From Candidatus Acidiferrales bacterium (GTDB lineage Bacteria > Bacteroidota > Ignavibacteria > Kryptoniales > JAKASW01), in contig DATJAY010000028.1 of NCBI GenBank assembly GCA_035515795.1, positions 5,296-69,295 of the forward strand: a stretch of 64,000 bases of DNA. Direction: 5' to 3'. Below are positions 4,695 to 63,226 of this stretch, piece by piece. The notes under the pieces are model-generated. The model was not told the origin of the DNA, made no database searches, and was given only the letters and a program-made list of their open reading frames with translations. Made by a program: the position numbers and the translations under genes. The stretch's first letter is position 1. Each line of letters begins with the position of its first letter.

Positions 4695-4752
4695 GTCATT
4701 CCGGCGAAAGCCGGAATCCAGCCTTCTGGATGCCAGCTTTCGCTGGCATGAC
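4695..4752. repeat. 58-nt three-hairpin cloverleaf element (intergenic repeat-like)
   Basis: GTCAT|TCCGGC-GAAA-GCCGGA|ATCCAG-CCTT-CTGGAT|GCCAGC-TTTC-GCTGGC|ATGAC. All stems are perfect, there are no linker nucleotides, and it folds the same way on both strands. Confidence 0.6.
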
Positions 4753-4839
4753 ATCTCCTCTTTTGTTTGAACATCCAAAATGAGTCACCACCAAGCAAAT
4801 AGCCCCATCTGCGCCTATGTACCTTTGCCACCCAGATTA

Positions 4840-6552: not shown

Positions 6553-6602
6553 CTGCGGAAATCCTTTCTTAAAAGGAGGCACATGGTGCCTTTGTCCCTT
6601 GT

Positions 6603-9600
6603 TTAGAAATACACCTTAATGGTCGCCACCGAATTTTTCTTTGTCATAAGATTGACGTGATTCCCTTTGAACGGAACGGGATTCCCGTCGTCTTCGAGGA
6701 AACTTGACTCGACAACTTTTTTCGGAGTCATCGGTAAAACCAAATCGGCATTTGAATCCTTCCCGACCGCTTCGTACCACTGAATTACCCATGCATTGGA
6801 CCTCTCGGCAACTTTTGCGATCGTGAGGACAAGATTCGACGGTGTCAATTGGATAAATGAATGACTCAACGGCAGGTCGCCTTTATGAATCGTGCCAACA
6901 AATGCAATAAGGGGATAGTTATACTGATAAGCTTGGTGGACCGTCCCGCCGTCTTTCCATGTACCATCATGCGAGTAAATTGCGTATTTAATTTCGTGCT
7001 CGCCGCGATCGGCCGTCGGATCGGGCCAAACCGGTGAACGAAGCAGCGACAATCTCATCGTGCTTCCCCTCGTGTCGTAGCCGTATTTGGCCTGGTTCAA
7101 AAGGCTGACACCAAATCCGTTGTTCGACATATCTGCCCAGCGCTCCGCTGGAACTTCAAACTTGGCTCTCTCCCAGCTGTTCGTTGGGATCGTGTGGCGT
7201 ACAATTGAGCCGTAAGGAATTTCGTATGTTGCCAGAGAATCCTGCACGTCGAGCGGGAATGCCACTTTGAGCATAACGTGAGTCTCCCACCAATCCGCAT
7301 CGAGTCCGAAATCTACGCGGTCAACGCCGTTGTACAAAATTATGTCCTGGTTGAAGAACGAAGACGGGAAATTGTCGGTCGGGAAAACGCCGACCTGTCC
7401 CGGCCTGAGAAAATCTCTACAGACTCTCAACACGACTCTTACCGGTCCCTTCTCGACGACTTCAACTTTTCTCAACTTGGACGGATACTCGACGCCGGTA
7501 AAGCCGATGTTCCAGGCATCCCACTCTTTCGGGTTGTCTTCCAGGAATTGAAGACGATTTCCTTCGCCGGTTAAGACTTCTCTTTTATTCCTTTTGTCAT
7601 AAATATTTTTGACCCAGCCGGAATCAGGATCTATCACGACTCTGTAAAATTGATTCTCCAAAAAAGTTGTATCGATCTCCAATTGTTGAGACGCAAGGTT
7701 TTGCGTCTTCGCGTCGGGTTTTACGTCGCGAAGTTCGTAGACCTTGTAACCGAGAGAAGGAACGCTGTCGGCTACGAAAATTATCTCACGAGAATATTCA
7801 CTCTTTTGAACGATCTGAGACGGAACTTCTCTTCCGCCGGAATCAAAAATCGAATAATAACTCGACTCGCCTTTCCCGCTGGCAGCATATTCAGGGGGAA
7901 GTTCCAATTTCACCACGTCGGTCCTCGACCATGACAGCGGGTTGAATACGACAATCGGCTTGCTCTCAACCATTGTCCTCCTCACGATCAGAGTATCCCC
8001 AAAATGGAGTTCGCCGACCACGGTCTTCCCCTTGATGGCCGAGGTGTTGATGTGTTCCTCGATTCGTTCAAGAGAGCCGTCGAGTTGATACTTGCCGATT
8101 TCATTCACCTTCTTGTATCTCTTTGCGGCGTCGATGTAGTTCTCACGAATGCCAGAACCGGGAAGGATATCGTGAAACTGGTTGAACATTACGTCCCGCC
8201 AGGCGGTTTCCAAATCCCGGTTGTTATAATCTCGGTCGTAGATTGTGGCAACTGTGGAAAATTTCTCCGCAGTGGTCATCAACACTTCAGATTTTCTGTT
8301 CGACTTTTTCGTCTCGGACTGCGTAGTGAATGTGCCCTGATGATATTCCAAATAGAGTTCGCTGTCCCAAACCGGGAGCTTCGATATGTCCTGACTCTTC
8401 AGCCACTTCAGGTAATTCGTCACTGTCCCGAATTCAACCTTCGGATAAATGTCAAGCGTCTTCAAGCGGTCTATTCTCTCCATCATTTCCAGAGAAGGAC
8501 CGCCGCCGTGATCTCCAACTCCGAAAAGGACCATCATGTCAGCGAAACCTGTATTAGCTTCGAATTGCCGCAGCCAGTCGACGAGTCGATACGGATTTGA
8601 AATTTCATTTACATAGTCAAATGGAAAATAACTTAATATCCTGGATCCATCAGGAGACTCCCACCAGAAGACACGGTAAGGAAAAACGTCCGTTTCGTTC
8701 CAGCCGATCTTTTGCGTGATGAAGGCATCGATCCCGGCGTTCCGGTAAAATTCAGGCATGTTCCAATCATAGCCGAACGAATCGGGGTTCCACCCTATCT
8801 TTGCTTCGACGCCCAAGTTTTTCTTGAAATAATTTTGCGAGTAGAGAAGCTGATGCATCCACGATTCTCCGCTCGGCAGGTTGCAGTCAGGCTCGATCCA
8901 CATTCCGCCGACCACTTCCCATCTGCCGTCTTTCACGCGCTGCTTTATCCCGTTGAACACATCGGGATAATTCTCTTCCATCCAATTATAATATGCAGCG
9001 GCACTCTGGGCGTAAGTCAAGTCGGGCCTGGCATCCATCATGTGCAAGACCGAGGCAAAGGTATTTCGACAGACTTGAACAGTTTCAATGTATCTCCACA
9101 ACCAGGCAGCATCGATATGAGCGTTTGAAACAAAATACAAGGTGTACTGTTTCACGAATTCGCTGATCGGTTTTAGTTTCGGACGAACCGAATTGACGGA
9201 GACAACGAACTTCGTATCATCTCCCGTCTTCAACGCATCGACATTGATTTCGCCCGCAAGCTTCTGAAGGAGATCGTTCAACCTTATTTTTTCATCGCGA
9301 TCCATCTTTGACTTATCGATATGAGGATCAACCCTGACCCTCGCATTCGTCTGGTAAGTATCAAAGCTGAGAATCTTCTGTCCGACTCTAAAACTCAATG
9401 CAACATCGCGCATCATGTCGGGAATTTCGTTGATTACTCCGCTGCGCAATTCTGCTTGCAAGAGATGAATCATCGCACCGCCGTTCACAGCTTTGATCGC
9501 GATGACGAACCGCATTCCCGGCCTTGCATTGTCGGTCAACACAAATTCTTTGGTAAACGGGAAATAACCTTTGCTTTCGCCGTTGATCCACATGTATCCG

Positions 9601-9965
9601 TAGTTATCGAGCGTCACGAGTAGACCGATCTTGCCTTCGACCGGTCTCCCGAAAATGCTGTCCGGCAGAACGAAAGCTTTTCTTATCCAGCAGGAATCAT
9701 CATCGATTTCATCACCAAGTCTCTTGTTATCCCACAGCGAGTCGTCAAAATCCAAGGAAGTGGGATCTCCTTTTACGGGGTTGCCTAGATCGGGGCTAAC
9801 TTTCCAATTATCTACAGAAGCCGTCGCAGCAAGAGAATCGAGTGAAGAAGAAAGTCTATCTACGTTTGATTGCCGGGAATTTGCGGATGGATTAGTTTGT
9901 GCTCTTCCGTAGGAAAGAGTTGCGAACAGCGACAAAAAAAAGGCAAATCGGCAAAGGAATTTCAT
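6603..9965 (-). CDS. GH38 alpha-mannosidase with signal peptide and an N-terminal jelly-roll-like extension
   Basis: GH38 core motif FVSNAHIDAAWLWRYIET, then GGMWIEPDCNLPSGES and FHDILPGSG. Signal peptide MKFLCRFAFFLSLFATLSYGRAQ runs from the ATG at 9965, which has GGAGG 8 nt upstream. The 9980 ATG is an alternative start. Confidence 0.85.
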   Translation of the reverse strand: MKFLCRFAFFLSLFATLSYGRAQTNPSANSRQSNVDRLSSSLDSLAATASVDNWKVSPDLGNPVKGDPTSLDFDDSLWDNKRLGDEIDDDSCWIRKAFVLPDSIFGRPVEGKIGLLVTLDNYGYMWINGESKGYFPFTKEFVLTDNARPGMRFVIAIKAVNGGAMIHLLQAELRSGVINEIPDMMRDVALSFRVGQKILSFDTYQTNARVRVDPHIDKSKMDRDEKIRLNDLLQKLAGEINVDALKTGDDTKFVVSVNSVRPKLKPISEFVKQYTLYFVSNAHIDAAWLWRYIETVQVCRNTFASVLHMMDARPDLTYAQSAAAYYNWMEENYPDVFNGIKQRVKDGRWEVVGGMWIEPDCNLPSGESWMHQLLYSQNYFKKNLGVEAKIGWNPDSFGYDWNMPEFYRNAGIDAFITQKIGWNETDVFPYRVFWWESPDGSRILSYFPFDYVNEISNPYRLVDWLRQFEANTGFADMMVLFGVGDHGGGPSLEMMERIDRLKTLDIYPKVEFGTVTNYLKWLKSQDISKLPVWDSELYLEYHQGTFTTQSETKKSNRKSEVLMTTAEKFSTVATIYDRDYNNRDLETAWRDVMFNQFHDILPGSGIRENYIDAAKRYKKVNEIGKYQLDGSLERIEEHINTSAIKGKTVVGELHFGDTLIVRRTMVESKPIVVFNPLSWSRTDVVKLELPPEYAASGKGESSYYSIFDSGGREVPSQIVQKSEYSREIIFVADSVPSLGYKVYELRDVKPDAKTQNLASQQLEIDTTFLENQFYRVVIDPDSGWVKNIYDKRNKREVLTGEGNRLQFLEDNPKEWDAWNIGFTGVEYPSKLRKVEVVEKGPVRVVLRVCRDFLRPGQVGVFPTDNFPSSFFNQDIILYNGVDRVDFGLDADWWETHVMLKVAFPLDVQDSLATYEIPYGSIVRHTIPTNSWERAKFEVPAERWADMSNNGFGVSLLNQAKYGYDTRGSTMRLSLLRSPVWPDPTADRGEHEIKYAIYSHDGTWKDGGTVHQAYQYNYPLIAFVGTIHKGDLPLSHSFIQLTPSNLVLTIAKVAERSNAWVIQWYEAVGKDSNADLVLPMTPKKVVESSFLEDDGNPVPFKGNHVNLMTKKNSVATIKVYF

Positions 9966-10111
9966 CTTGCGACCCTCCATTTAAAGGATGAATCAGAACC
10001 TCAACCGCAAGCTAAGACTGCCGACTAATTTCGCCTTTTTTCTTTTGCGAAGCAATCTCACAACAAAACATGTGAAGTGTCAATCGAGAATGCCCGGAGG
10101 AAGTCCCCGGT

Positions 10112-12934
10112 TCAGATCCAGCTTTTCTTCAACAGAACGGTCTTCACAAATTGTGTGAGAGTCACATAGGACAGCAAAGTCATGAACAAGATGGGCCAAT
10201 ATAACACGGGAAGGGCCACCAACCCTAGCGAAGACGCAAACGGAGAGAACGGAAGCCAGATTCCGAAGGCGATAATAATTCCCGTGGTTATCATCAGCGG
10301 CACGCTTGGACGGCTTTGCAAGAATGGAATCTTATTCGTCCGTATGACATGGATGATCAGAGTCTGTGTCATCAACGACTCGACGAACCAACCTGTCTGG
10401 AACAGCGAGGCATGTACCGGGTTCCAGCAATAAAAAATATAGAGCATCACAAAGTATGTCGTATAGTCGAAAATCGAACTTATAGGACCGATGAAGATTA
10501 TGAATTTCCTAATTTCATCTATAGACCAGGGTCTCGGCCTCGTGATCTGTTCCGGATCAACGCTATCGGTCGGGATTGGAATCTGCGATATATCATAGAG
10601 AAAATTATTTGTCAGAATTTGTATCGGAGCCATCGGCAGAAAAGGAAGAATCGCGCTTGCGCCCAGCACGCTGAACATGTTTCCGAAATTGGAACTTGCG
10701 CCCATCCTGATGTACTTCAAAATGTTGTTGAATACTTTCCTTCCCTCCAGCACTCCTTCTTCGAGCACCATCAAACTCTTCTCGAGCAGGATAATATCGG
10801 CAGATTCCTTGGCAATATCGACCGCAGTATCAACTGAGATACCGACGTCCGCCACGCGGAGCGCAGGCGCGTCGTTAATGCCATCCCCCATAAATCCGAC
10901 GACATGCTTTCGCTGTCTCAGAACATCGATAATTCGCTTCTTATGCGTGGGAGAAAGTCTCGCGAAAAGCGTCGTCCTCTCCGATGCTTCCGCCAGCTCT
11001 TCGTCCGACATATTTTCAATTTCATTCCCGATCAAAGTATATTCCGTAGAAAGGCCCACTTCATGGCACACTTTTTTGGCGACAAGATCATTGTCTCCCG
11101 TCAAAACTTTTACCGCAACTCCGTGCTGCTGCAGCGCGCCAATCGCCGGTGCCGTGGTTTCTTTAGGAGGATCGAGAAATGCGAGATATCCCTTCAAGAC
11201 AAGATCTTGTTCTTCATCTTTTGAATAAGCAGGTTTTTTTTCTACATCCTTGAATGCGACCGCGAGGACGCGAAATCCGTCCATGCTCAACCTCTCGTAT
11301 TCCTCTTTCAAATCTTGAATGAGGACCGGGTCCATCGGAAGTATGTCGCCTTCCAGCTCGAACCACGTGCACCGCTTGAAGATCTCTTCGGGCGCACCTT
11401 TAGTGAGCAGCCTGTATTCCTCCTTGGGCGAACAGACAACTACCGACATGAGGCGGCGGGAAAAATCAAAAGGTATCTCGTCAACTTTTAAATAATCCGA
11501 GATCGATACTACTTTTTTCACTTCTTCGTGTTGAAGGACAGCGCGGTCTAGAACGTTTCTAAGCCCGGTCTGGAAATGGCTGACGAGAAACGCATCTTTT
11601 AAGACTTCATCGTCTTCCTTTTGTACCACATCGCAATGCTGTTCCAGTATGACATGATCCATCGTCAGTGTGCCTGTCTTGTCGGTGCACAAAACATCCA
11701 TGGCGCCGAAGTTCTGAATTGAATTCAAACGTTTGACGATCACCTTTTTTCGAGACATCAGCATTGCCCCCTTTGACAGGCAAACCGAAACGATCATCGG
11801 GAGCATCTCAGGAGTCAGACCCACTGCAACTGCAAGAGCGAAGAAAAACGCTTCGATCCAATTGTGTTTCGTCAGCCAGTTTATGAGAAAGACGGTCGGC
11901 GCCATGAAAAAAATAAACTGGATCATCAATACGGTAAACCGGTTGACACCCTTGTCGAAGCTCGTCTCGACCGGATGGGCCGTGATGCTTCTTGCCATCT
12001 GCCCGAAGTATGTATTCGAACCCGTGTTGACCACAACCGCGGTGGCACTTCCGCTTTCCACACTCGTGCCTAGATAGCAAATATTGGAAAGTTCCAGCAG
12101 CGAATCCTTAGACTCCGGCGCGTCAAATTTTTCCACCGGCATGGATTCGCCTGTGAGCGACGCTTGAATGATAAATAAATCTTTGGATGAAACAATTCTG
12201 ACATCTGCCGGAATCATATCCCCCGCAGCCAATTTCACAACATCGCCAGGCACAACTTCCTTAAGCGGAATTTCCACCTCCTGTCCGTCGCGAAGGACCG
12301 CAGTGGTGACTTTAATCATCGCCTTCAACGCAGCCGCCGCTTTATCCGCCCGCGACTCCTGTATGAACCTCAATGCCACGCCCATAACCACCATGCCCAG
12401 CATCACGACCCCCGATCTGACATCTTCCGTAGCAAATGCTATCACCGCGAGTATCGACAACAGTATGACCAGCGGATTCCTTATGGAATCTAAAAATCGC
12501 GCCCAGCCTCCATGCTTCTTCTCCTGTGCCACCTCATTGAATCCGTGTTCCTCTATACGCTTTTCAATTTCTTCCTGAGGAAGTCCGGAAGGCTGAGTCT
12601 CCATAGATCTGTATACTTCTTCCGACTGAAGCTTCGACGCTTCAATCACGCGCTGTGCAGAAGCAGATTTAACGCTCGACCTCGAAAAACCCTCATCGGC
12701 CTTATTGATGCCGTTGCTTTTTAAGATCGAAAATAATTTTTCCAGACCGGTAGTTCTTATGTTTTTTCCGTTTACCTGTGCCATGATAATTCTTTCTAGG
12801 ACAAAGAGGCAGAAATTTCTTGAAAATTTAATTCCGATTTTCAAAAGATTCCACACATTCCCGGAAAATTCGAGATTTGTCGAGCCGGAAACGCTCGAAG
12901 TCGTAAATCCTGGATTTGGAATTTTCTCCGACAT
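10112..12934 (-). CDS. mgtA: Mg2+-importing P-type ATPase
   Basis: Contains DKTGTLT, TGDN, GDGINDAPAL and TGES, with ten TM segments, and is MgtA-like over its whole length. The start is ambiguous. The ATG at 12934 has AGGAG 9 nt upstream. The ATG at 12784 (MAQVNGK...) fits the E. coli MgtA length better. The 13006 start overlaps ispE. Confidence 0.9.
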   Translation of the reverse strand: MSEKIPNPGFTTSSVSGSTNLEFSGNVWNLLKIGIKFSRNFCLFVLERIIMAQVNGKNIRTTGLEKLFSILKSNGINKADEGFSRSSVKSASAQRVIEASKLQSEEVYRSMETQPSGLPQEEIEKRIEEHGFNEVAQEKKHGGWARFLDSIRNPLVILLSILAVIAFATEDVRSGVVMLGMVVMGVALRFIQESRADKAAAALKAMIKVTTAVLRDGQEVEIPLKEVVPGDVVKLAAGDMIPADVRIVSSKDLFIIQASLTGESMPVEKFDAPESKDSLLELSNICYLGTSVESGSATAVVVNTGSNTYFGQMARSITAHPVETSFDKGVNRFTVLMIQFIFFMAPTVFLINWLTKHNWIEAFFFALAVAVGLTPEMLPMIVSVCLSKGAMLMSRKKVIVKRLNSIQNFGAMDVLCTDKTGTLTMDHVILEQHCDVVQKEDDEVLKDAFLVSHFQTGLRNVLDRAVLQHEEVKKVVSISDYLKVDEIPFDFSRRLMSVVVCSPKEEYRLLTKGAPEEIFKRCTWFELEGDILPMDPVLIQDLKEEYERLSMDGFRVLAVAFKDVEKKPAYSKDEEQDLVLKGYLAFLDPPKETTAPAIGALQQHGVAVKVLTGDNDLVAKKVCHEVGLSTEYTLIGNEIENMSDEELAEASERTTLFARLSPTHKKRIIDVLRQRKHVVGFMGDGINDAPALRVADVGISVDTAVDIAKESADIILLEKSLMVLEEGVLEGRKVFNNILKYIRMGASSNFGNMFSVLGASAILPFLPMAPIQILTNNFLYDISQIPIPTDSVDPEQITRPRPWSIDEIRKFIIFIGPISSIFDYTTYFVMLYIFYCWNPVHASLFQTGWFVESLMTQTLIIHVIRTNKIPFLQSRPSVPLMITTGIIIAFGIWLPFSPFASSLGLVALPVLYWPILFMTLLSYVTLTQFVKTVLLKKSWI

Positions 12935-50772: not shown

Positions 50773-52272
50773 ATGTCAAAACTTTTAGTAATTGCTCTGC
50801 TCCCTTTTTTTGCAGCAGGAGCAGCATTCTCACAAGCGACACTACCAGATACGTTGGCGGGTTATGTGAAGGGAAAAACTGCACCCAACCATACATATGT
50901 TGTAAACGACAGCCTGTATGTTAACGTGGGTGACACCCTCACAATCAGCCCCGGCGACACGCTCCTAATGAAGAACAATCCTTCGACGGGCGCTGCATGT
51001 TGGATAGATGTCCTCGGAACCTTCATCTGTGAGGGAACATCGACAAACCGCATTGTGATCACGACTGCCTTTGTGGATTCTGCAAAACATCCTGGAATGT
51101 GGGGAGGCATCATTGGAGATTCTTGCAAATACATCAGCGTCAGGTTTGCAATCATTACCTGGGCGGGAGGCAATGACGCGTCGGGTCACGCTTATCGCAC
51201 ATTCGACATTTCTTCCGATGCCGCGAATACCACGAACACCGTCTTCACGGATAATGTGGTCGTGGGCACTGTTGATGACTGTATCGGTCTCCACGGGGGG
51301 AATGCAAGTGTTCTTCGCAACACCTTGAAATGGGTTGGTGCACCAGACGGCGATAACATCAACGTAAAGTCCGGTACGATCGGCGAAATTGCCTACAATG
51401 TCATCTGGGGAGCGGGCGGAAATGGAATCAAGATCAATGCTTCCACGACAGTCGCTCGCATAACCAATGTATGCATTCATAACAATACAATCGCTGCCGG
51501 GGGATGGCGCCGAATCGACGAACTCGGATACGGCATCCTCGTAGATGCAAGCGCGCGCGCTCAGATTTACAACAACATAATTGGTGATATGTACGGCGGA
51601 CTTGAGATTACAACAATAGCTGACACCTTGAGGACCGTCCATGATAACAACCTGTTCTTCTACTCAGTCGACAGTTTGAGCGGGACAGCACGCTACTATC
51701 CTTCCGACGGAGTCGGTAGACCTGCACCGGACGATATCTTTGATGTGAAAGCCAGTAACCTCTTTGTAAGTTACCAGCCATTTTTCACAAACGACTGGAA
51801 TACCCTTGATGGGTCAAATAATTACCACTTGCTTGGTTCATCTCCTGCTATAGGACACGGATTTACTCCGCCAGCTCCTACTTCCTCGAATCACTGGTGG
51901 AACCCATACTTCGTAAATGGTACGGATACATTGACATTGCCGGGTGATGCAAACATCGGAGCGTATGGCCTGCTTACGGCCATCGAAAATCAAAACTCCA
52001 ACGTCCCATCGAGCTTTATACTAGATCAGAATTATCCGAATCCTTTCAACCCTTCGACACAGATCAGTTACAGCATTCCCAGGAACGTCTATGTTTCGTT
52101 GAAGGTCTATAACGTCCTCGGTCAAGAAGTCAGCACGCTTTTTGCCGGCGAGCAGACCGTGGGCCAGCATTCGGCTACATTCGATGGCAGCAATTTCGCG
52201 AGCGGTGTTTACTTTTATCGTTTGGAAGCCGGTGCTAATTCTATCACAAAGAAAATGATATTGGTTAAGTGA
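50773..52272 (+). CDS. Right-handed beta-helix repeat protein with a T9SS C-terminal sorting domain
   Basis: Signal peptide. Repetitive N/G/I-rich beta-helix turns (NVIWGAGGNGIKINAS, IHNNTIAAGG, IYNNIIGDM). CTD: LDQNYPNPFNPSTQISYSIP...GVYFYRLEAG...KMILVK. Confidence 0.75.
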   Translation: MSKLLVIALLPFFAAGAAFSQATLPDTLAGYVKGKTAPNHTYVVNDSLYVNVGDTLTISPGDTLLMKNNPSTGAACWIDVLGTFICEGTSTNRIVITTAFVDSAKHPGMWGGIIGDSCKYISVRFAIITWAGGNDASGHAYRTFDISSDAANTTNTVFTDNVVVGTVDDCIGLHGGNASVLRNTLKWVGAPDGDNINVKSGTIGEIAYNVIWGAGGNGIKINASTTVARITNVCIHNNTIAAGGWRRIDELGYGILVDASARAQIYNNIIGDMYGGLEITTIADTLRTVHDNNLFFYSVDSLSGTARYYPSDGVGRPAPDDIFDVKASNLFVSYQPFFTNDWNTLDGSNNYHLLGSSPAIGHGFTPPAPTSSNHWWNPYFVNGTDTLTLPGDANIGAYGLLTAIENQNSNVPSSFILDQNYPNPFNPSTQISYSIPRNVYVSLKVYNVLGQEVSTLFAGEQTVGQHSATFDGSNFASGVYFYRLEAGANSITKKMILVK

Positions 52273-55730: not shown

Positions 55731-56480
55731 CTATTGCGCTGTCCTGCGGAATCCTGAGGCGGCGGCTTGTTCGTTCCACCGTTGACCATTAACTCCGATC
55801 GCGACGAGCCATAAGGCAAGCAATAATTCCGCAGCACCGGGTATCAGAATGTAAGGCACGAGATGCGTCTCGAATGCGGGTGAGATAAAGCCCGAGAAAC
55901 AATTGACCAGGTAGCACAAACCCGAAATTGCCAACAGCACCCCCAGAACTCGAGGAAGGAAAGTCGATCTGAAAATGAGGTAACCGATCAGGAGATTATA
56001 GGTTCCGAAGAGTACCATGTTGATGTTGTATCCCTGATCATAAAATTTGAGAAACATGAGAGCCAGCGCCTGCAGCTGATCCGTATTAAATGCGCTCAAG
56101 GACTGCGATCCTCCCAGAATAATCAAAGGGGCAAACTGAAAGACGCAGTTGAGACCCTGAATAGTACTTCCCACGAGGCTGAAGGTCACCGCAAGCACGG
56201 AAAGACTCCTGTTTACCGGTTTAAATAGGTTGTACAGAAGAAGTGCATACACGATATATAACAAGCCGATGATGTCGCCGACGAAAGCCAACCGGAACAA
56301 CAGATCGTGTGACAGTATGTTGTGCGCTGTAGCCGAGGCGTTCCAGTATACGACAAGCTGGCCGCGAACGACCGAGGCGAAACCTGTCGTCGTGGTTATC
56401 AGCGCAATCACTCCAGCCATCCTCGACTGGGAATGCGGCGATGCTCCTGCGATCCGATCCATCATTGTTGTCGTGCTCAT
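55731..56480 (-). CDS. Multi-pass membrane protein, DUF4386-like
   Basis: About six hydrophobic helices. N-terminus ...SRMAGVIALITTTTGF. The family assignment is from memory only. Confidence 0.55.
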   Translation of the reverse strand: MSTTTMMDRIAGASPHSQSRMAGVIALITTTTGFASVVRGQLVVYWNASATAHNILSHDLLFRLAFVGDIIGLLYIVYALLLYNLFKPVNRSLSVLAVTFSLVGSTIQGLNCVFQFAPLIILGGSQSLSAFNTDQLQALALMFLKFYDQGYNINMVLFGTYNLLIGYLIFRSTFLPRVLGVLLAISGLCYLVNCFSGFISPAFETHLVPYILIPGAAELLLALWLVAIGVNGQRWNEQAAASGFRRTAQ

Positions 56481-56701
56481 ACTCTCTCCTCACTATGCAA
56501 GTGATTGAAACAACTTTGTGCAAAAATCAGATTGGATTATGATAGTGACACACCCACTCTGACATGGATATTGAATTTCGTGCGTGGAATCTCCAAGCGC
56601 TGGCCTGCTCTTTTCGTCGTTGAACATCGATTATGTTGAGCCACATGTGAGGTGCTAAATCCGAAATACCGACTGCCACCTAACAGGATGCTTCCACTAC
56701 T

Positions 56702-57094
56702 CTATGCCATTGTGGCCGCTTTGCGAGGCGCTGAAGGCGACGGCTGCTTGAACACTACCGTCGTGAAGAACTCGATAATCAAACCGAACACCCCATTCAT
56801 GATGGCATTGCCCACCGGCACCGGTCCAGGTCCCATGTGCATGAAAAGGAAGTAGGAGAAGATCGACCCGACCAGCCATCCCATGATGGCACCGTTCCAG
56901 GCCCATCCTAACCTCAGCCCGGAGATAGCGATGGTAAAGCCCATGATGCCCCTGTTCATCAGCACCCAAATCAAATTGACAGGCGTAAACTTCAGGAAGC
57001 CGGCAGAGAATGCCGCAGACGCGCAGACCACACCCATAGCCAGGCCGAAAAGCGTGGCAATCACAATCCGTTTCATCGATACAACCGTGTTCAT
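56702..57094 (-). CDS. Small 4-TM membrane protein, unknown function
   Basis: I chose the ATG at 57094 (MNTVVSMKRIVIATLFGLAMGVV...) because AAGGAG lies 8 nt upstream. The longer 57247 start adds a non-membrane, Cys/Arg-rich leader. It is divergent from the MerR operon. Confidence 0.55.
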   Translation of the reverse strand: MNTVVSMKRIVIATLFGLAMGVVCASAAFSAGFLKFTPVNLIWVLMNRGIMGFTIAISGLRLGWAWNGAIMGWLVGSIFSYFLFMHMGPGPVPVGNAIMNGVFGLIIEFFTTVVFKQPSPSAPRKAATMA

Positions 57095-57437
57095 GTTTTG
57101 GTCTCCTTTTGCGAAATCTTGATTAAGTAAGAATGAAAAGCGAGTGATCCATGATAGGGACATACCTCGAGGTGCAACAAAGTCTCTGCAGCATGTTCTC
57201 TCATTTTCAGCTCCCTTCAAAGTTGTGACTCGGACGTAGAATGACATGACTTATCCCCACAGGAATAAGGCTCGTCATCTTTGTGACCGTACGGAGACCG
57301 CTCCTCGAATGTTTCGATTTACATTTAAAACGGGTTTCTTGCGGCGAAGAGTCTCTCGCATCTTTCCATCTGTGACTTTATTCCTCCTGATCTCACCCAA
57401 ATCCCTCAAAATACCGCATTTCTACCGGCATAACACT

Positions 57438-57453
57438 TGTATTTATAAATACA
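57438..57453. promoter_or_regulatory. Perfect 16-bp palindrome, candidate MerR-type operator
   Basis: TGTATTTATAAATACA, ending 24 nt upstream of the MerR-family ATG at 57478. Confidence 0.4.
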
Positions 57454-57477
57454 GGTCCCGAAATCGGGATCCTTGAT

Positions 57478-57936
57478 ATGCAAAGTCAGGAAACGCTCAC
57501 ACATTCCATCGGCGAAGTTGCAGAGATGCTGAAGATCTCTGTCGAGACCATAAGGCTCTACGAGCGGCGCGGGCTTACGCTCACGGTCAAAGACGATAAT
57601 AACCAGCGAACCTTTTCCGAGTCGGACATCGAGAGAATAAAATGCATTCGCACCGCGATCAACGACCACAAGATTTCTATCGAAGGGATCCGCCGCATTC
57701 AGTCGCTCGTTCCCTGCTGGGAACACATCAAATGTCCTGACGAGCAGCGCGTGAAATGTCCTGCATACCTCCGCAGCGACGCTGGCTGCTGGACGTATCG
57801 AGACAAGCAGGAAAATTGTTCATCACGGGATTGCCGGAGATGCAAGGTGTACCAGCTTTCCGGCGACTGCGAGAAAATCAAATCGCTTATTCACCACGAT
57901 GTAATGTCTTCTCTTAATTTAACAGACGACGAGTAG
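57478..57936 (+). CDS. MerR-family transcriptional regulator with an 8-Cys C-terminal domain
   Basis: HTH region SIGEVAEMLKISVETIRLYERRGL...RTFSESDIERIKCI. C-terminal PCWEHIKCPDEQRVKCPAYLRSDAGCWTYRDKQENCSSRDCRRCKVYQLSGDC. Confidence 0.85.
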   Translation: MQSQETLTHSIGEVAEMLKISVETIRLYERRGLTLTVKDDNNQRTFSESDIERIKCIRTAINDHKISIEGIRRIQSLVPCWEHIKCPDEQRVKCPAYLRSDAGCWTYRDKQENCSSRDCRRCKVYQLSGDCEKIKSLIHHDVMSSLNLTDDE

Positions 57937-57939
57937 CCT

Positions 57940-59508
57940 ATGAAAAAAATCTTTCTTCCGCTTTTCGTGCTGGTGGTCTTTGCCGTAATGGTTTTCACCG
58001 CGCTGCACAAGAACAGCGCAGATAATCCACCGCTCACAGTTTTGAAACAGCAATACTCTGTCAAGTCGACACCTTCGGTCGATCATTCATTGTTCCCCGA
58101 GCTCAAGAAAAAGTTCAGCAGCCCGCAGCAGGTGACCGCGGCATGCATATCCTGCCACAACGGTCGGGCCCAGGAAGTGATGCACTCGACCCACTGGAAC
58201 TGGACGCGGCTCGAATATATCGAGGGGAAGGGCATCAGGTCGATCGGGAAAAGAAATATCCTGAACAATTTCTGCATCGGCATTGCGGGGAGCGAGCAAA
58301 GCTGCACGAGGTGCCACGCCGGATACGGATATGCTAATACGGATTCTTATTTCAAAGACTCGCTCAACGTCGATTGTCTCGCGTGCCATGATAACAGCGG
58401 CACCTACATGAAGGCAAGCGAAAAAGCCGGTATGCCTGACAGTTCAGTCAACTTGAGCTTCGTGGCACAGCATGTCGGTAAACCGACGCGCACAAATTGC
58501 GGCGTCTGTCATTTCTTCGGCGGAGGGGGCAACAATGTGAAACACGGCGATCTCGAGCAGGCACTCTTCGATCCGACTCGCGACGTGGACGTCCACATGG
58601 CGACGGACGGGCTCGACATGCAATGTGTCGATTGCCATACCGCAAAGAAACACCAGATGTTAGGCAAAATGTATTCGGTATCATCGATGAACCGCAATCG
58701 CGTACAATGCGAGAGTTGTCATGGCACATTACCGCACAACGACGATGTCTTGAACGAGCACACAGTCAAAGTCGCCTGCCAGACGTGTCACATACCGGTT
58801 TTTGCGAAGGTGAATCCTACAAAAATTTATTGGGATTGGTCCACGGCCGGCAAACTGAAAGACGGCAAAGCTTATGTAGACGAAGATTCCAACGGCACCG
58901 ACAGCTATATGTCCATCAAAGGATCATTCAAATGGGGAAGAATGTTGAAGCCTGATTATGTCTGGTTTAACGGTACGGCATCCCACTATCTACTCGGCGA
59001 TACATTCAATGCGTCAAAGCCGCTTGAGGTAAATAAGCTGTACGGTAGTTATGACGATCCCGATTCAAAGATTTATCCCGTGAAAATTCATCGCGGGAAA
59101 CAAATCTACGACGTCGGATACAATTACCTTATTCAACCGAAGCTATACTCCGCAAAGAAAGGTGACGGCGGATTTTGGGCCGACTTCAACTGGCAGCGCG
59201 CCGCTGAAGAAGGGATGAAGCAGGTCAACCTGTCGTACAGTGGGAATTACGGATTCGCCCAGACGGAAATGTATTGGCCGGTCAATCACATGGTCTCGTC
59301 TAAAGAGCAAGCAGTCCAGTGTAACGAATGCCATACGCGCGACAACGGCCGTCTCGCGAGCCTTGATGGATTCTATCTCCCCGGCAGAGATTACAATCCG
59401 GTCGTTGAACACTTCGGCGCCGGACTGATTCTCCTCACTCTCGTTGGAGTTGTCCTGCATGGCGGTGGAAGGATTATGATGAGCCGAAAAGGAAAGGGAG
59501 GGAACTGA
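57940..59508 (+). CDS. Octaheme c-type cytochrome, tetrathionate-reductase (OTR)-family-like, membrane-anchored
   Basis: Exactly eight CxxCH motifs: CISCH, CTRCH, CLACH, CGVCH, CVDCH, CESCH, CQTCH, CNECH. N-terminal signal or anchor, and a C-terminal hydrophobic helix FGAGLILLTLVGVVL. Confidence 0.8.
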   Translation: MKKIFLPLFVLVVFAVMVFTALHKNSADNPPLTVLKQQYSVKSTPSVDHSLFPELKKKFSSPQQVTAACISCHNGRAQEVMHSTHWNWTRLEYIEGKGIRSIGKRNILNNFCIGIAGSEQSCTRCHAGYGYANTDSYFKDSLNVDCLACHDNSGTYMKASEKAGMPDSSVNLSFVAQHVGKPTRTNCGVCHFFGGGGNNVKHGDLEQALFDPTRDVDVHMATDGLDMQCVDCHTAKKHQMLGKMYSVSSMNRNRVQCESCHGTLPHNDDVLNEHTVKVACQTCHIPVFAKVNPTKIYWDWSTAGKLKDGKAYVDEDSNGTDSYMSIKGSFKWGRMLKPDYVWFNGTASHYLLGDTFNASKPLEVNKLYGSYDDPDSKIYPVKIHRGKQIYDVGYNYLIQPKLYSAKKGDGGFWADFNWQRAAEEGMKQVNLSYSGNYGFAQTEMYWPVNHMVSSKEQAVQCNECHTRDNGRLASLDGFYLPGRDYNPVVEHFGAGLILLTLVGVVLHGGGRIMMSRKGKGGN

Positions 59509-59509
59509 A

Positions 59510-60172
59510 ATGAAAAAAGAATACATCTACAAAAGGTTCGAACGCTTCTGGCATTGGACCCAGGCTGCACTCATCATATTTCTCGGTGTCACCGGATTCG
59601 AGATTCATGGGTCGATAAAGTTCTTTGGATACGACCAGGCAGTGAGATACCACGACATTGCTGCGTGGACCTTCCTTATCCTGATTGCATTTGCAATCTT
59701 CTGGCATTTCACGACCGGAGAATGGAAACAATACCTCCCTACCTGGAAAAACATGCGCGCGCAAGCCGAGTACTATGTCTTCGGAATCTTCAACAATGCG
59801 CCTCATCCGACAAAGAAGACTGTCCTGAGCAAATTAAATCCGTTACAGAAGCTCGTCTACGCTGGCTTGAAGGTGCTCGTGATTCCGGTAATGGTCCTCA
59901 GCGGGCTTGTATATATGTTCTACCGGTACCCCCAACGTTATGAAGTTCTCGCACTGAATATCAGCGGACTCCGGGTCGTTGCCGTGATTCACACGATCGG
60001 AGCATTCCTCCTCGTGGCGTTTTTCATCGCTCACTTATATCTAATCACGACCGGGCAGACGGTTACGTCAAACCTCAAAGCGATGATAACCGGATACGAA
60101 GATTTGCCGAAAGAACATGAGAATAAAACGGGTGAAATTATTTCAGAAAAATTTGGTGAGGTGACGAAATGA
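59510..60172 (+). CDS. Membrane cytochrome b subunit (PF01292-type, quinol-interacting)
   Basis: RFERFWHWTQAALIIFLGVTGFEIHG, HDIAAWTFLILIAFAIFWHF and VIHTIGAFLLVAFFIAHLY. Four to five TM helices with conserved His residues. SD AGGGAGGG upstream. Confidence 0.8.
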   Translation: MKKEYIYKRFERFWHWTQAALIIFLGVTGFEIHGSIKFFGYDQAVRYHDIAAWTFLILIAFAIFWHFTTGEWKQYLPTWKNMRAQAEYYVFGIFNNAPHPTKKTVLSKLNPLQKLVYAGLKVLVIPVMVLSGLVYMFYRYPQRYEVLALNISGLRVVAVIHTIGAFLLVAFFIAHLYLITTGQTVTSNLKAMITGYEDLPKEHENKTGEIISEKFGEVTK

Positions 60173-60690
60173 ATATAAAATATATGAACCCATATCTTGC
60201 CGGATTTTTTTTGGGCCTCGTATTGCTGGCAACGATATTTATTACCGGACGAGGTCTCGGAGCGAGCGGTGCGATCAAAGATGCCGTCATCGCAATCGCA
60301 GACGGCATCGCACCGAAACACACCGAATCATCTCCGTTCTTCGGGACGTATGTAGGTTCCGGAAAAGACAGCCCGCTTAAATCATGGCTCTTCTTCGAAA
60401 TCGTCGGCGTGGTGATAGGAGGATTCATTTCCGGATTGATCTCCGACCGGTTGAAGATCGTCACGGAGGCCGGCCCAAAAGTGAAGCCGAAAGTTCGCTG
60501 GATCTTTGCAGCGATAGGCGGCGCTTTGTTCGGCATCGGGGCACAGTTCGCGCGCGGCTGCACTAGCGGCGCGGCGTTGAGCGGAATGGCTGTCCTCTCG
60601 ACCGCAGGGTTCATAACGATGATCGCAATCTTCGGAACCGGGTATGCCGTTGCATTCTTCGGACGAAAGTTGTGGATACAGAAGGATTGA
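60169..60690 (+). CDS. YeeE/YedE family sulfur-compound transporter, half-size subunit 1
   Basis: GRGLGASGA and GAQFARGCTSGAALSG motifs. 173 aa, four TM helices. ATGA overlap with the upstream gene. Confidence 0.8.
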   Translation: MNIKYMNPYLAGFFLGLVLLATIFITGRGLGASGAIKDAVIAIADGIAPKHTESSPFFGTYVGSGKDSPLKSWLFFEIVGVVIGGFISGLISDRLKIVTEAGPKVKPKVRWIFAAIGGALFGIGAQFARGCTSGAALSGMAVLSTAGFITMIAIFGTGYAVAFFGRKLWIQKD

Positions 60691-60699
60691 GGTGAAACC

Positions 60700-61893
60700 A
60701 TGGGACCATTCGTACCTGATTTAATTTCCGACCAGCTGAATCTGGTCGTTGCTCTCATGCTCGGAATTGCATTCGGCTTCGTACTGGAACAAGCTGGATT
60801 TTCTTCATCCAGAAAATTAGCCGGCGTATTTTATGGATACGATTTTGCAGTGCTGCGCGTGTTCTTTACCGCCGCGGTGACGGCGGCAAGCGGTGTCATC
60901 TTGCTCGGCTATTTCGGACTTCTTGACACCGATGTCATTTATGTTAATCCGACATGGTTACTCCCCGCACTCGTGGGCGGAGCTATAATGGGTGTAGGAT
61001 TTATATTGGGCGGCTACTGCCCCGGCACGAGCGTCACCGCAGCGGCAATCGGTAAAGTCGACGGGATGTTTTTCATCGGCGGCGGACTTCTAGGAGTATT
61101 CGCGTTCGGTGAGCTATTTCCATTATACGATAAATTTTTCGACTCGACGTTTCTCGGCCCGACAAAAATCTTCGATTCACTCGGCGTATCACAGGGATTG
61201 TTTACGTTCATATTGATCGCGGTTGCGGTCGGTGCATTTGCAATTACGACAATTATCGAGAAAAGAGTAAACAAAACTGCGGCGCCTTCGCTGCAATTCA
61301 AACCGATGAAACATTTTGCGGCGGGGTTCGTGATACTCGCGCTTGGCATTCTGTTTGTCTTCCTGCCCGATCGGAAGACAAGCCTCATTGAAAAAGTCAC
61401 GTCTCAAAATTATATCGCGACTCATCCGACAGCGACAATGGAGGTCGATGAGCTTGCTTTTCGCATTGTCGATCAGGAACCCAATATCCGCATCATAGAC
61501 ATTCGTCAGCCCGCGGAATACGCCAAGCTCGCCTTACCCGGCTCGAGCAATATTCAAATGAACGACTTTTTCAGCAAGGATGCGGTCTCATCGTTCTCAC
61601 AGCGACATATGAAAAAGGTTATCGTCGGTGATAGTGAGGCGGAGGAACGCACTGCTTGTTTACTTCTGCATGAACTCGGCTACGAAAACCTTTCGGTATT
61701 GAAAGGCGGGTTTGATGAATTCAACAAGACGATCCTGAATCCGTCGATGTTTGTCCCCACCGGAACACGATGGGATGCCGATGTGAAGGAGTTCCGCGAG
61801 AATGCACGAATTGAGATACTAAAAATGATCGACGCCGACAAAGACAAGGCACCGCGAGAAATCAAGAAGAAAAAAATTCAGGGTGGGTGCTGA
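60700..61893 (+). CDS. YeeE/YedE half-size subunit 2 fused to a rhodanese-homology domain and a Lys-rich tail ending in GGC
   Basis: LEQAGFSSSRKLAG and GGYCPGTSVTAAAIG, then two extra TM helices. Rhodanese-like IRIIDIRQPAEY...KKVIVGDSEAEERTACLLLHELGYENLSVLKGGFDEF. Tail ...DKDKAPREIKKKKIQGGC. Confidence 0.8.
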   Translation: MGPFVPDLISDQLNLVVALMLGIAFGFVLEQAGFSSSRKLAGVFYGYDFAVLRVFFTAAVTAASGVILLGYFGLLDTDVIYVNPTWLLPALVGGAIMGVGFILGGYCPGTSVTAAAIGKVDGMFFIGGGLLGVFAFGELFPLYDKFFDSTFLGPTKIFDSLGVSQGLFTFILIAVAVGAFAITTIIEKRVNKTAAPSLQFKPMKHFAAGFVILALGILFVFLPDRKTSLIEKVTSQNYIATHPTATMEVDELAFRIVDQEPNIRIIDIRQPAEYAKLALPGSSNIQMNDFFSKDAVSSFSQRHMKKVIVGDSEAEERTACLLLHELGYENLSVLKGGFDEFNKTILNPSMFVPTGTRWDADVKEFRENARIEILKMIDADKDKAPREIKKKKIQGGC

Positions 61894-62029
61894 ACTGAAT
61901 GACGGCACGCCGCCGACAAAGGAGATGCACGCTTCTGCAGATCATTGGTTGCCAGACAATTCTGCGGGCGACGATCGGATGCTATCCCGAAAATGGCTTC
62001 GCCTTCCGCCTCGCCTCGAGTTCCCCAGT

Positions 62030-63226
62030 TTAATCTTGTCTGAAGTGACCTGAATTCGCGATGACCTCAGTCCCGGGCATCAGACTGCATTCGTAAATGC
62101 GAACGGTTCTGTCGAGACATTTCCTATAAACCTCTCCGATGCTCCCCTCAAATTCTTCGACCGAGCTATCCTCGACCAGATTTAATGTGCAGCCTCCGAA
62201 CCCACCTCCCATCATCCTTGCACCTAATACTCCGTTAATCCCCGACGCCGTATCTACGAGCAGATCCAGCTCAGCGCAGGACACTTCATATTTCTCCCTT
62301 GCTCCTTCGTGAGAGAGATAGAGCAGTTCCCCAAAACTTGCATAGTCACTCTGCTGGAGGTAATGCTTTGCGGAGTTGACGCGAATGTTCTCTTCGAGAA
62401 CATAGCGGCAGCGTTTGTAGACAACATCACCCAACTCAGCTGCGTGCTCGTCAAGCATTTCAAAGTCCACGTCACGAAGACTCTTCACCTGAGGGTCGTA
62501 TCTCCTCATTATCTGCACGCCGGTTTCGCACTGCTGTCTGCGAAGATTGTATTCTGAAGATGCAAGACTATGCTTCACACCGGTATCGCAAAGAATCACC
62601 TTAATATCTTTTCTGACAAAAGGTAAATAATCATATTCCATGTTTCTGCAGTCGAGATACAAAACCGATTTCCCTTTGCTAAACAGATTTGCAAATTGAT
62701 CCATGATGCCGCATTTGACCCCGACAAAATCATTTTCTGCCTGCCGCGCAAGTTCGGCCAATTCACCGCGTTCCAGTCCCAGGTTGAACATCATATCGAG
62801 CGCATAAGCCAATCCGGCTTCTAACGCCGCTGATGAGGACATCCCTGCTCCAATCGGGATATTTCCTGAAAAGACGCAGTCGAACCCCCCGATATGGCGA
62901 CCGCTTTTGTTTAGTTCGCTCACTATCCCGATGAGATAGTTCGCCCAGCTCTTGTTTGACTTTACCGGGTTTCTCACGTCAAACCTGAAATCATCATCAA
63001 AATCCAGAGTGTACAGCCTTGCTTCGGAATCATTCCTTGCATTTATCGCAAAATAAATCGCCCGGTCTATCGCCGAAGGAAGAACGAAACCTTCATTGTA
63101 ATCGGTGTGCTCGCCTATCAGATTTATTCTCCCTGGTGACCTGACTATCAATTGGCCATCGTTATGATTAAATAATCGCGCCGACTTTTCCCTTAACGAA
63201 TTAATTATTGTCTGTTCATCTTTCAT
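62030..63226 (-). CDS. galK: Galactokinase
   Basis: GRINLIGEHTDYNEGFVLP, the GHMP motif NIPIGAGMSSSAALE, and GARMMGGGFGGCTLNLV. Confidence 0.95.
   Translation of the reverse strand: MKDEQTIINSLREKSARLFNHNDGQLIVRSPGRINLIGEHTDYNEGFVLPSAIDRAIYFAINARNDSEARLYTLDFDDDFRFDVRNPVKSNKSWANYLIGIVSELNKSGRHIGGFDCVFSGNIPIGAGMSSSAALEAGLAYALDMMFNLGLERGELAELARQAENDFVGVKCGIMDQFANLFSKGKSVLYLDCRNMEYDYLPFVRKDIKVILCDTGVKHSLASSEYNLRRQQCETGVQIMRRYDPQVKSLRDVDFEMLDEHAAELGDVVYKRCRYVLEENIRVNSAKHYLQQSDYASFGELLYLSHEGAREKYEVSCAELDLLVDTASGINGVLGARMMGGGFGGCTLNLVEDSSVEEFEGSIGEVYRKCLDRTVRIYECSLMPGTEVIANSGHFRQD

Follow-up and report, generated by a model that had tools for sequence, protein, structure and literature searches.

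We suggest that a five-gene operon on the plus strand of contig DATJAY010000028.1, at positions 57478-61893 of the 64,000-nucleotide stretch analysed here (the window), encodes a membrane-bound, quinol-driven reductase that would act in the periplasm on inorganic sulfur compounds containing an S-S bond, together with a carrier arm that ends in a cysteine and a pore that would relay sulfur from cysteine to cysteine. In our estimate the probability of this reading, which is drawn from sequence, is slightly above one half. It is built on a rhodanese-homology domain that has lost its catalytic cysteine and ends in a conserved Gly-Gly-Cys, and on the re-use of the same cassette beside reductases of another kind.

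The five open reading frames (ORFs) encode a MerR-family regulator (57478-57936), an octaheme cytochrome c of the octaheme tetrathionate reductase (OTR) family (57940-59508), a dihaem cytochrome b (59510-60172) and the two halves of a split YeeE/YedE channel, PmpA (60169-60690) and PmpB, the latter fused to the rhodanese-homology domain (Rhd) and here called PmpB-Rhd (60700-61893). They are joined, in order, by a 3-nucleotide gap, a 1-nucleotide gap, a 4-nucleotide ATGA overlap and a 9-nucleotide gap; the public gene call starts the fourth frame at 60184, 15 nucleotides later than 60169. A preliminary description of this DNA had proposed the same genes and junctions and a single compact operon, all of which we confirm, and its domain calls (MerR, octaheme cytochrome c, dihaem cytochrome b, split YeeE and rhodanese) are borne out by hidden Markov model (HMM) scans. 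It did not mention the invariant terminal Gly-Gly-Cys, the loss of the catalytic Cys in the rhodanese domain or the sixth transmembrane (TM) helix between the YeeE half and this domain.

The rhodanese-homology domain and its Gly-Gly-Cys tail

The rhodanese-homology domain covers residues 245-345 of the last protein (61432-61734) and is recognised by PF00581 (E=1.9e-11; 44.7 bits, cut-off 22.2). In its active-site loop, VIVGDSEAEER, the pattern CxxGxR[ST] is not kept; the catalytic Cys of HP1203 aligns with a Ser, and the best PDB matches of the domain are the Cys-less domains of Alr3790. Among 68 distinct full-length homologues of the last gene, the pore residue C107 and the last residue, C397, are the sole invariant Cys. 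As no Cys of the domain is conserved and a Ser stands in place of the loop Cys, this is a non-catalytic rhodanese-homology domain. The AlphaFold model of the monomer is confident in this region (pLDDT, the predicted local distance difference test score, 85-91). The preliminary description had imported thiosulfate handled by the rhodanese tail. This finds no support, as the catalytic Cys is missing family-wide, the domain is predicted to be periplasmic and the conserved reactive residue is the Cys of the terminal Gly-Gly-Cys.

Behind the domain follow a helical linker and a Lys-rich tail (61735-61890), which ends in Gly-Gly-Cys (GGC, 61882-61890) directly before the stop codon (61891-61893). 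In the window the tail reads …KKKKIQGGC, and the AlphaFold pLDDT falls below 50 for residues 386-397. The same end is found in 73 of 78 downstream ORFs taken from 83 OTR-derived loci: 66 end exactly in GGC and 7 carry one or two further residues (GGCG, GGCS and GGCGG types). It follows a Lys/Arg-rich stretch, and the 12 residues before GGC have a mean net charge of +3.4. The exceptions look like frameshifts or shortened contigs. When 1.84 billion cluster representatives were searched exhaustively with a profile, 2822 clusters reached E<=1e-3 and 375 reached E<=1e-30; the latter number makes the combination of PmpB, TM helix, dead rhodanese and GGC a large uncharacterised architecture. Within the best 150 clusters, 107 representatives are full length (at less than 50% identity); 86 of these end in [G/E/S][G/A]C plus 0-3 residues and a further 7 have …GC inside the last five residues. 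A flexible tail ending in GGC is characteristic of the SoxY sulfur-carrier arm.

Selenocysteine read-through after GGC, where the window reads TGC-TGA, was considered and rejected. The stop codons are mixed (TGA 52, TAA 46, TAG 37) and the sequence after them is not conserved, so that GGC is the true C-terminus. A GlyGly-CTERM sorting signal was likewise rejected, as no TM helix follows the two glycines, and so was a GG terminus of the ThiS/MoaD type, as there is no beta-grasp domain. In a separate observation, a subset of Rhd-GGC proteins associated with Psr (loci L096, L098, L110, L112, L128 and L142) has an extra conserved pair, C-x5-8-[RK]-[IV]-P-G-x-x-C, in the otherwise Cys-free domain, and this pair may form a periplasmic disulfide.

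The sixth TM helix (residues 205-222, 61312-61365) is predicted to carry Rhd-GGC to the periplasm. The PmpB-Rhd family has six conserved hydrophobic segments, five of them in the channel half. Its N-terminus is acidic, and the loop that joins segments 5 and 6 is basic (residues 186-205, with 4.2 K+R against 1.9 D+E); over the family, predicted inside loops average 7.2 K+R and outside loops 1.5. In the crystal structure of full-length YeeE both the N-terminus and the end of H1-H6 lie outside; H7 leads back across the membrane, and for H8-H13 both ends are inside (PMC7449682). From the six segments, the acidic N-terminus and the basic 5-6 loop, segment 6 is predicted to run from inside to outside, which would place Rhd-GGC in the periplasm. 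AlphaFold also has a helix at 202-221 of the monomer.

Natural gene splits point the same way. L056 and nine metagenome loci have the gene in two pieces, with the break exactly in the basic loop; the product of the second piece begins with a basic N-terminus and a signal anchor, followed by Rhd and GGC. Other OTR operons encode lipoprotein rhodaneses with lipobox signal peptides and …GGC ends (L079 10344-11399, L072 5752-6870 and L070 6926-7444), in which the catalytic Cys loops are intact; at L070, from a Labilibaculum metagenome-assembled genome (MAG), the lipoprotein rhodanese-GGC replaces the PmpAB cassette. The periplasmic location of the catalytic partners, OTR and the PsrA-like subunits exported by twin-arginine translocation (TAT), also supports a periplasmic Rhd-GGC. 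We regard its position in the periplasm beside OTR as a well-supported prediction.

Gene linkage, reductase and channel

Scanning one genome per GTDB species with an OTR alignment gave 80 loci, with 51-86% OTR identity, in at least six phyla. Bacteroidota, Ignavibacteriota, Acidobacteriota, Kapabacteria, Chloroflexota, LCP-89, Delongbacteria, Armatimonadota and others carry the module, and five of the loci are from cultured strains. Cytochrome b directly follows OTR in all 80 loci, and 73 of the 74 that extend far enough downstream to be informative show the order OTR-cytochrome b-PmpA-PmpB, among unrelated flanks. This linkage is far beyond chance. The nearest relatives of the window, which comes from an 84-kb metagenome contig, are Kryptonia/Bacteroidota-type MAGs, and a Kryptonia MAG whose OTR is 79% identical has the five genes in the same order with entirely different neighbours. 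The neighbourhoods were also searched for recurrent genes such as haem lyase, TusA, DsrE and nitrogen-cycle genes; besides MerR or MarR regulators, no family reaches more than 8 of the 80 loci, and those that recur have no relation to sulfur or nitrogen metabolism. The preliminary description had named as grounds for its own rejection a lack of synteny in relatives and a cytochrome closer to another multihaem family; since synteny is conserved and the cytochrome scores best to OTR, these tests do not refute it.

The cassette is also attached to reductases of another type. A metagenome scan with the PmpB-Rhd alignment returned 80 loci, of which 30 lie on contigs too short to judge; among the 50 informative ones, 32 stand beside Psr/Phs-type genes, 10 beside OTR-cytochrome b and 1 beside both. 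At L011, from an Acidobacteriota genome, a second pair of PmpA and PmpB-Rhd, ending in …GGGC, comes right after a molybdopterin oxidoreductase with a TAT signal, a four-cluster ferredoxin and an NrfD-type anchor. The oxidoreductase matches PhsA best, with 496 bits, which is under the equivalog cut-off. Here (2211-7856 on the minus strand, and 8001-11964) and at L089 (662-9185), both of Acidobacteriota type, a Psr/Phs module and an OTR module stand back to back and divergent, each with its own cassette. This re-use suggests that the cassette acts on something common to OTR and Psr/Phs, an S-S substrate or a sulfane intermediate, which is likelier than thiosulfate specifically. We consider it the strongest argument that OTR here acts on sulfur and not on nitrogen, because the same cassette serves two periplasmic quinol-linked reductases that are not homologous to each other, one of which is a member of the classic family of polysulfide, thiosulfate and tetrathionate reductases. 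The sulfur-related role put forward in the preliminary description is retained.

Three loci show a third architecture (L151 3228-9227, L155 and L161), with an OTR of about 45% identity that has no tail anchor. Downstream of it follow a 915-residue multihaem cytochrome c fused to a PF01292 cytochrome b, PmpA, and a PmpB-Rhd ending in SGGCG. As a side observation, the second cassette of L056 (12122-17534) consists of PmpA, a PmpB of 196 residues and a separate signal-anchored Rhd ending in GGCS, and it adjoins a two-domain rhodanese lipoprotein, a Crp/Fnr regulator and a multihaem cytochrome c of 474 residues without NCBIfam match.

Shewanella-type operons have the order monohaem cytochrome c (106-109 residues), DUF3373, OTR, and occur in Shewanella, Marinobacter, Ferrimonas, a Desulfuromonadales MAG and another MAG; at two further loci of this type OTR stands alone. 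All five of the small cytochromes (L084 3814-4140, L085 3900-4226, L087 3887-4216, L168 2822-3142 and L170 2690-3010) end in …DS(D/P)QPxTCG, with a penultimate Cys that is reminiscent of carrier arms. In lucinid symbionts, soxY-S3 and soxZ form a divergent pair beside otr (PMC11237559). With the Shewanella-type cytochrome, the symbiont soxY and Rhd-GGC taken together, most of the operon types examined therefore pair OTR with a periplasmic protein that carries a C-terminal Cys.

The octaheme cytochrome of the window (522 residues) belongs to the OTR family, as the preliminary description had proposed, and not with NrfA, HAO or MtrA. TIGR04315 scores 588 bits against a cut-off of 375 and PF11783 gives E=1e-66, and the next-best multihaem models reach at most 42 bits. 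With phmmer, residues 55-468 align to the solved Shewanella OTR (1SP3) at E=3.5e-130 and about 48% identity. The protein has an N-terminal hydrophobic segment, exactly eight CxxCH motifs without variant motifs, one additional non-haem Cys, Cys112 (58273-58275), and a C-terminal TM helix (residues 492-510, 59413-59469) that contains His507 (59458-59460). Lys104 (58249-58251) aligns with Lys56, the ligand of haem 2 in 1SP3, and is predicted to ligate haem 2 here too. K104, C112, H507 and all 16 haem Cys are invariant across 81 homologues. These homologues also keep the C-terminal helix with its basic cytoplasmic end, which sets them apart from the soluble type member; the extension is missing from Shewanella-type OTRs (455-476 residues). 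The tail anchor marks a subfamily variant that is still within the OTR family. The family is characterised by reductase activity with tetrathionate, nitrite or hydroxylamine, which the window OTR may share.

The dihaem cytochrome b (220 residues) is a membrane subunit of the FdnI/HyaC/PhsC type. PF01292 scores 100 bits against a cut-off of 30; PhsC (NF011582) is the best NCBIfam match with 105 bits, which is under its equivalog cut-off of 204 and leaves the protein outside PhsC proper. His15, 66, 161 and 175 form an FdnI-like pattern of four His (TM1, TM2 and two on TM4), with a spacing of 14 residues in the last helix, in agreement with the quinol-type dihaem partner that had been proposed. 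Seven His (15, 33, 48, 66, 99, 161 and 175) are 99-100% conserved in 80 homologues. We note that His33, 48 and 99 are three more than two haems need, and that the invariant His507 of OTR lies near the cytoplasmic end of its helix; together, the His of the two proteins could bind an extra haem or form a quinol site. The tetrathionate/thiosulfate couple lies near +198 mV (cited in PMC8528874). From established knowledge, electron flow from menaquinol to tetrathionate is therefore favourable.

The channel is split as the preliminary description had it, with the C- and N-terminal halves of the PF04143 profile on separate proteins. PmpA (173 residues) matches profile positions 176-308 of 310 and corresponds to the C-terminal half of full-length YeeE. 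Its RGCTSG motif is invariant in 77 homologues and contains Cys131 (60559-60561). This residue corresponds to Cys293 in the YeeE of S. thermophila, which lies at the mouth on the periplasmic side. PmpB (residues 1-186, 60700-61257) matches positions 10-195 and corresponds to the N-terminal half plus an H7-like fifth TM helix. Cys107 (61018-61020), in GGYCPGTS, is equivalent to Cys91 on the cytoplasmic side; both the residue and the motif GG[YF]CPGTS are invariant in 68 homologues. PmpB-type proteins are known to represent the N-terminal and PmpA-type proteins the C-terminal half of YeeE (PMC11582611). As a PDB profile search with the PmpB alignment missed the YeeE structure, the mapping of the halves and Cys residues rests on the Pfam coordinates and on PMC11582611 and PMC7449682. 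Full-length YeeE imports thiosulfate (PMC7449682). The TsuA/YeeE transporter models place the window proteins outside their families, with 43 bits against a cut-off of 400 and 21 against 645 (NF052577 / NF041049), and the operon contains no TusA-like gene of the YeeD/TsuB type.

Proposed mechanism and competing explanations

We propose that electrons would pass from menaquinol through the dihaem cytochrome b to the haem chain of OTR in the periplasm, with the tail-anchor helix holding OTR on cytochrome b in the same design as FdnH/FdnI and HyaA/HyaC. Candidate substrates are tetrathionate, polythionates or polysulfide. The terminal Cys, on its basic flexible tail, would covalently capture or present the sulfur substrate in the manner of SoxY, DsrC and Sud, the tail hanging from a catalytically dead rhodanese-like domain that would be tethered to PmpB in the periplasm. 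The thiolate of the arm would attack the S-S compound; with tetrathionate, simple thiol chemistry would yield Cys-S-S-SO3- and thiosulfate. OTR would then cleave the arm-bound S-S bond reductively at the Lys-ligated haem 2, near the invariant free Cys112, and regenerate the thiol. PmpA and PmpB would form a heterodimeric pore, in which Cys131 marks the outer mouth and Cys107 the inner side, and through which thiosulfate or sulfane sulfur would be relayed over the membrane; its outer mouth would be served by the tethered arm, as YeeE is served on the other side by the cytoplasmic YeeD.

More tentatively, it can be speculated that OTR cytochromes in general, and a subset of Psr/Phs enzymes, act on sulfur bound to the C-terminal Cys of a periplasmic carrier arm and not on free oxyanions, although we hold this wider proposal to be rather doubtful. 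The arm would then take the form of Rhd-GGC on PmpB, of lipoprotein rhodanese-GGC, of the cytochrome c ending in …TCG in Shewanella-type operons and of SoxY in the symbionts. If true, this would be a reductive counterpart of the carrier principle of Sox, coupled to a Cys-relay pore, and it would explain why purified OTR reduces tetrathionate poorly and why its role has been unresolved since 2004.

Several points weigh against a quinol-driven S-S reductase with a Cys arm. In vitro, OTR prefers nitrite and hydroxylamine and its activity with tetrathionate is low; in Shewanella ANA-3 it is dispensable for tetrathionate respiration, and a 2026 study suggested a role related to sulfite (both PMC12949373). 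The pocket around haem 2 of Shewanella OTR is positively charged (PMC4484225) and might repel a Lys-rich arm. No adjacent reductase is visible at 7 of the 50 informative PmpB loci. The membrane part of the AlphaFold monomer of PmpB-Rhd is unreliable (mean pLDDT 64), because of which the topology stays a prediction. Finally, the reading leaves unexplained why a respiratory system should need an importer.

The explanation closest to the preliminary description, in which OTR reduces free periplasmic tetrathionate, the split YeeE imports the thiosulfate and a cytoplasmic rhodanese tail processes it for assimilation or further reduction, appears unlikely to us. Its reduction and import steps still fit the data. 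OTR does reduce tetrathionate in vitro, full-length YeeE does import thiosulfate (PMC7449682), the gene order is conserved, and sediment microcosms given tetrathionate showed a 36-fold induction of otr from an Acidobacteriota MAG (PMC8528874), which is in line with our own reading as well; the otr quantitative PCR primers of Flieder et al., for their tetrathionate-induced gene, match none of the loci fetched here. However, none of the 68 homologues has a catalytic Cys in the rhodanese domain, and the sixth TM helix, the charge bias, the signal-anchored split forms and the lipoprotein forms all put this domain in the periplasm. The cassette moreover serves Psr/Phs-type enzymes, whose product is not thiosulfate, and the operon lacks a cytoplasmic partner of the TusA/YeeD type.

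The periplasmic Cys arm could also be read in the oxidative direction. OTR or the Psr-like enzyme would then oxidise sulfide, polysulfide or thiosulfate and conjugate the sulfur to the GGC arm as SoxXA does, with the electrons going to quinone, and PmpAB would bring in sulfane sulfur for cytoplasmic use, as proposed for SoxT1A. The SoxY-like carrier tail, the soxYZ genes beside otr in sulfur-oxidising symbionts and the YeeE-like SoxT proteins, which import sulfur for oxidation (PMC11582611), would all suit such a pathway. We nevertheless think it quite improbable. No sHdr, Dsr, TusA or DsrE genes recur beside the module in the 80 loci, and MAG analyses describe the hosts as fermenters or anaerobic respirers. 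The potential of the tetrathionate/thiosulfate couple given above, about +198 mV, is too high for reducing menaquinone, which is typical of anaerobic lineages of the Fibrobacteres-Chlorobi-Bacteroidetes (FCB) group and of Acidobacteriota.

A role in selenium or other chalcogen metabolism, in which selenite would be handled by the reductase and the Cys arm (e.g. bound to the arm as a selenotrisulfide) and selenium moved by the YedE-like pore, strikes us as very improbable. YedE relatives have been linked to selenium, and the window proteins match selenium YedE and rhodanese selenoprotein models weakly. The sole known respiratory selenite reductase, Srr, is Psr-like, and its operon has rhodanese-domain proteins of 38 and 45 kDa (PMC12481199), the latter being about the size of PmpB-Rhd. 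All scores of the selenium models are, however, far below their cut-offs and the tail carries no selenocysteine signal; otr responds to tetrathionate in sediment, and the ordinary soils, sediments and aquifers in which the module abounds contain far more sulfur intermediates than selenium.

Hardly credible at all is a nitrite or hydroxylamine reductase serving dissimilatory nitrate reduction to ammonium (DNRA) or detoxification, with the sulfur-transport genes merely co-located or used for haem or cysteine supply: OTR is indeed most active in vitro with nitrite and hydroxylamine and otr serves as a DNRA marker (PMC11879220), but 73 of 74 loci from several phyla keep the linkage, which extends over three divergent OTR architectures, a molybdoenzyme of sulfur type has the cassette too, and no nitrogen-cycle genes recur in the neighbourhoods.

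The proposed S-S reductase with its Cys arm bears on a long-standing question, as the physiological role of OTR has been open since the structure of 2004 and its function was never established, as the authors of PMC12949373 stress. Metagenomic studies use otr as a marker for both tetrathionate reduction and nitrite ammonification. The largest clade of tail-anchored OTRs, common in Bacteroidota, Ignavibacteriota and Acidobacteriota of soil, sediment and aquifers, is hard-wired to a sulfur channel and a Cys-arm carrier, so that annotation of these otr genes points to the cryptic sulfur cycle and away from the nitrogen cycle. An arm-bound substrate is suggested as a possible missing ingredient for OTR biochemistry. 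The role of OTR also becomes testable in cultured carriers, namely Mariniphaga anaerophila DSM 26910, Gaoshiqia sediminis, Sunxiuqinia rutila, Saccharicrinis sp. and Lutibacter sp.

Regulator, surroundings and comparison with known systems

The MerR-family regulator (152 residues) combines an N-terminal helix-turn-helix, for which PF13411 gives E=1e-15 and 57.7 bits against a cut-off of 21.6, with the Cys-rich C-terminal domain noted in the preliminary description. This domain (residues 80-131, 57715-57870) has the pattern PCW-x4-C-x7-CPA-x7-CW-x8-C-x4-C-x2-C-x8-C and no match in Pfam at E<=1, and the equivalog models of the known subtypes MerR, CueR, ZntR, SoxR, HspR and NmlR all score at most 44 bits on the protein, against cut-offs of 105-417. 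It holds eight of the nine Cys of the protein, and none of the nine varies among 24 homologues, some of which stand upstream of Psr-type modules (L147 and L135). The domain is possibly an unclassified sensor based on Fe-S or thiol chemistry, and the regulator would switch the operon in this clade.

At 57438-57453, 25 nucleotides upstream of the merR start codon, stands the perfect 16-bp palindrome TGTATTTATAAATACA. It is identical, and in the same position upstream of merR, in six loci (L001, which is the window itself, L003, L004, L005, L006 and L081), whose MerR proteins are merely 67-78% identical and whose flanks are unrelated. The palindrome is probably the operator of the Cys-rich MerR. 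A scan of 57100-62100 for sigma-70 promoters and terminators gave no excess over shuffled sequence; the sigma-70 consensus is probably inapplicable to this lineage. A dedicated regulator as part of the system, which had been claimed, finds no support: MerR stands directly upstream of otr in 19 of the 80 loci, with two displaced copies (L023 upstream and L060 downstream), and a MarR-family gene takes the same position in 15 others. Because the upstream regulator varies in this way, the conserved unit is the four-gene core, and MerR is a clade-specific addition.

Upstream of the operon, at 55731-57247 on the minus strand, the window has a gene for a DUF4386 protein and one for a protein of 130-181 residues without family, both small membrane proteins. 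They are not kept beside the module elsewhere and are probably unrelated to it. The window further contains genes for a protein with a Por_Secre_tail of the type IX secretion system (T9SS) and for a TonB-dependent receptor (50773-52272 listed), which are Kryptonia/Bacteroidota-like, as are the closest homologues. The identical YeeE-Rhd protein is nevertheless recorded for a MAG that is labelled Ca. Acidoferrales, and there may be a binning or labelling mismatch.

That no described system links these parts, as the preliminary description suggested, is partly true. No report of the combination of OTR, PmpAB and Rhd, of any link between OTR and PmpAB, of the GGC tail, of the dead rhodanese or of its periplasmic placement was found in the searchable literature, which is incomplete, so that absence is not proof. 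Parts of the system are known, however. A cluster of Otr and cytochrome b561 was mentioned for an Ignavibacteriae MAG (PMC7509429), and clusters of phsABC, pmpAB and a sulfurtransferase were described in Ca. Electryoneota, Ca. Lernaellota and Caldithrix abyssi (Williams et al. 2022, PMC9324843). In the latter, as here, a periplasmic quinol-linked reductase is followed by PmpA, PmpB and a protein of rhodanese type, which is fused to PmpB in some cases. Their reductase is a molybdoenzyme, whereas here it is a haem enzyme (OTR and cytochrome b). The function of those clusters was called 'unclear', and the missing catalytic Cys, the GGC tail and the periplasmic location are not reported there.

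The OTR of Shewanella oneidensis (SO_4144, 1SP3) shares with the window OTR the eight CxxCH motifs, the Lys ligand of haem 2 (Lys56, equivalent to K104) and the free Cys (Cys64, equivalent to C112). It differs in being soluble, and is thought to take electrons from CymA via STC (PMC4484225), while the window OTR is anchored by a tail helix that contains an invariant His, and has a cytochrome b of its own; the Shewanella operon, cytochrome c-DUF3373-OTR, has neither cytochrome b nor YeeE. The arrangement of the membrane part resembles instead FdnGHI and HyaABC/HydABC, where a periplasmic electron-transfer subunit sits with one C-terminal TM helix beside a four-helix PF01292 dihaem cytochrome b that shows the four-His pattern. 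There the partner is an Fe-S subunit, here an octaheme cytochrome c, and electrons are expected to run from quinol outwards. HydA of W. succinogenes reportedly has an essential His in its tail helix.

YeeE/YeeD (TsuA/TsuB) and PmpAB or YedE1E2 share with the window proteins PF04143 and both essential pore Cys (the equivalents of Cys91 and Cys293), and for PmpAB a heterodimer was proposed as well. The window proteins differ in that they have no equivalent of Cys22 and no cytoplasmic TusA-like partner (YeeD or PmpC). Their PmpB has two additional TM helices instead, along with an Rhd-GGC part whose predicted place, the periplasm, is across the membrane from that of YeeD.

For the arm, the closest parallels are SoxY, with the GGCGG swinging arm of SoxYZ, and the arm of DsrC, which likewise have a reactive Cys among the last few residues of a flexible tail. 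With SoxY, Rhd-GGC further shares the Gly-Gly before the Cys, the periplasmic location (predicted here) and a gene position beside haem enzymes that make or break S-S bonds, and some tails of PmpB-Rhd relatives read …VKVTTGPTKKGGCG, which is SoxY-like. The fold, however, is rhodanese-like and not immunoglobulin-like, the domain is membrane-tethered and has no SoxZ partner, its covalent loading is a prediction by analogy, and HMM scans of the window proteins gave no match to SoxY or SoxZ families. The arm may thus function as SoxY does, but it does not belong to the SoxY family.

Sud of Wolinella succinogenes is a periplasmic rhodanese-like polysulfide-sulfur transferase that feeds covalently bound sulfur to the quinol-linked PsrABC. 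It has a rhodanese fold, and its structure (1QXN) is matched weakly in sequence by the window domain (E about 0.015). Sud, though, is soluble and has the canonical Cys in its active-site loop, whereas here the loop Cys has been lost and the Cys has moved to the C-terminal tail.

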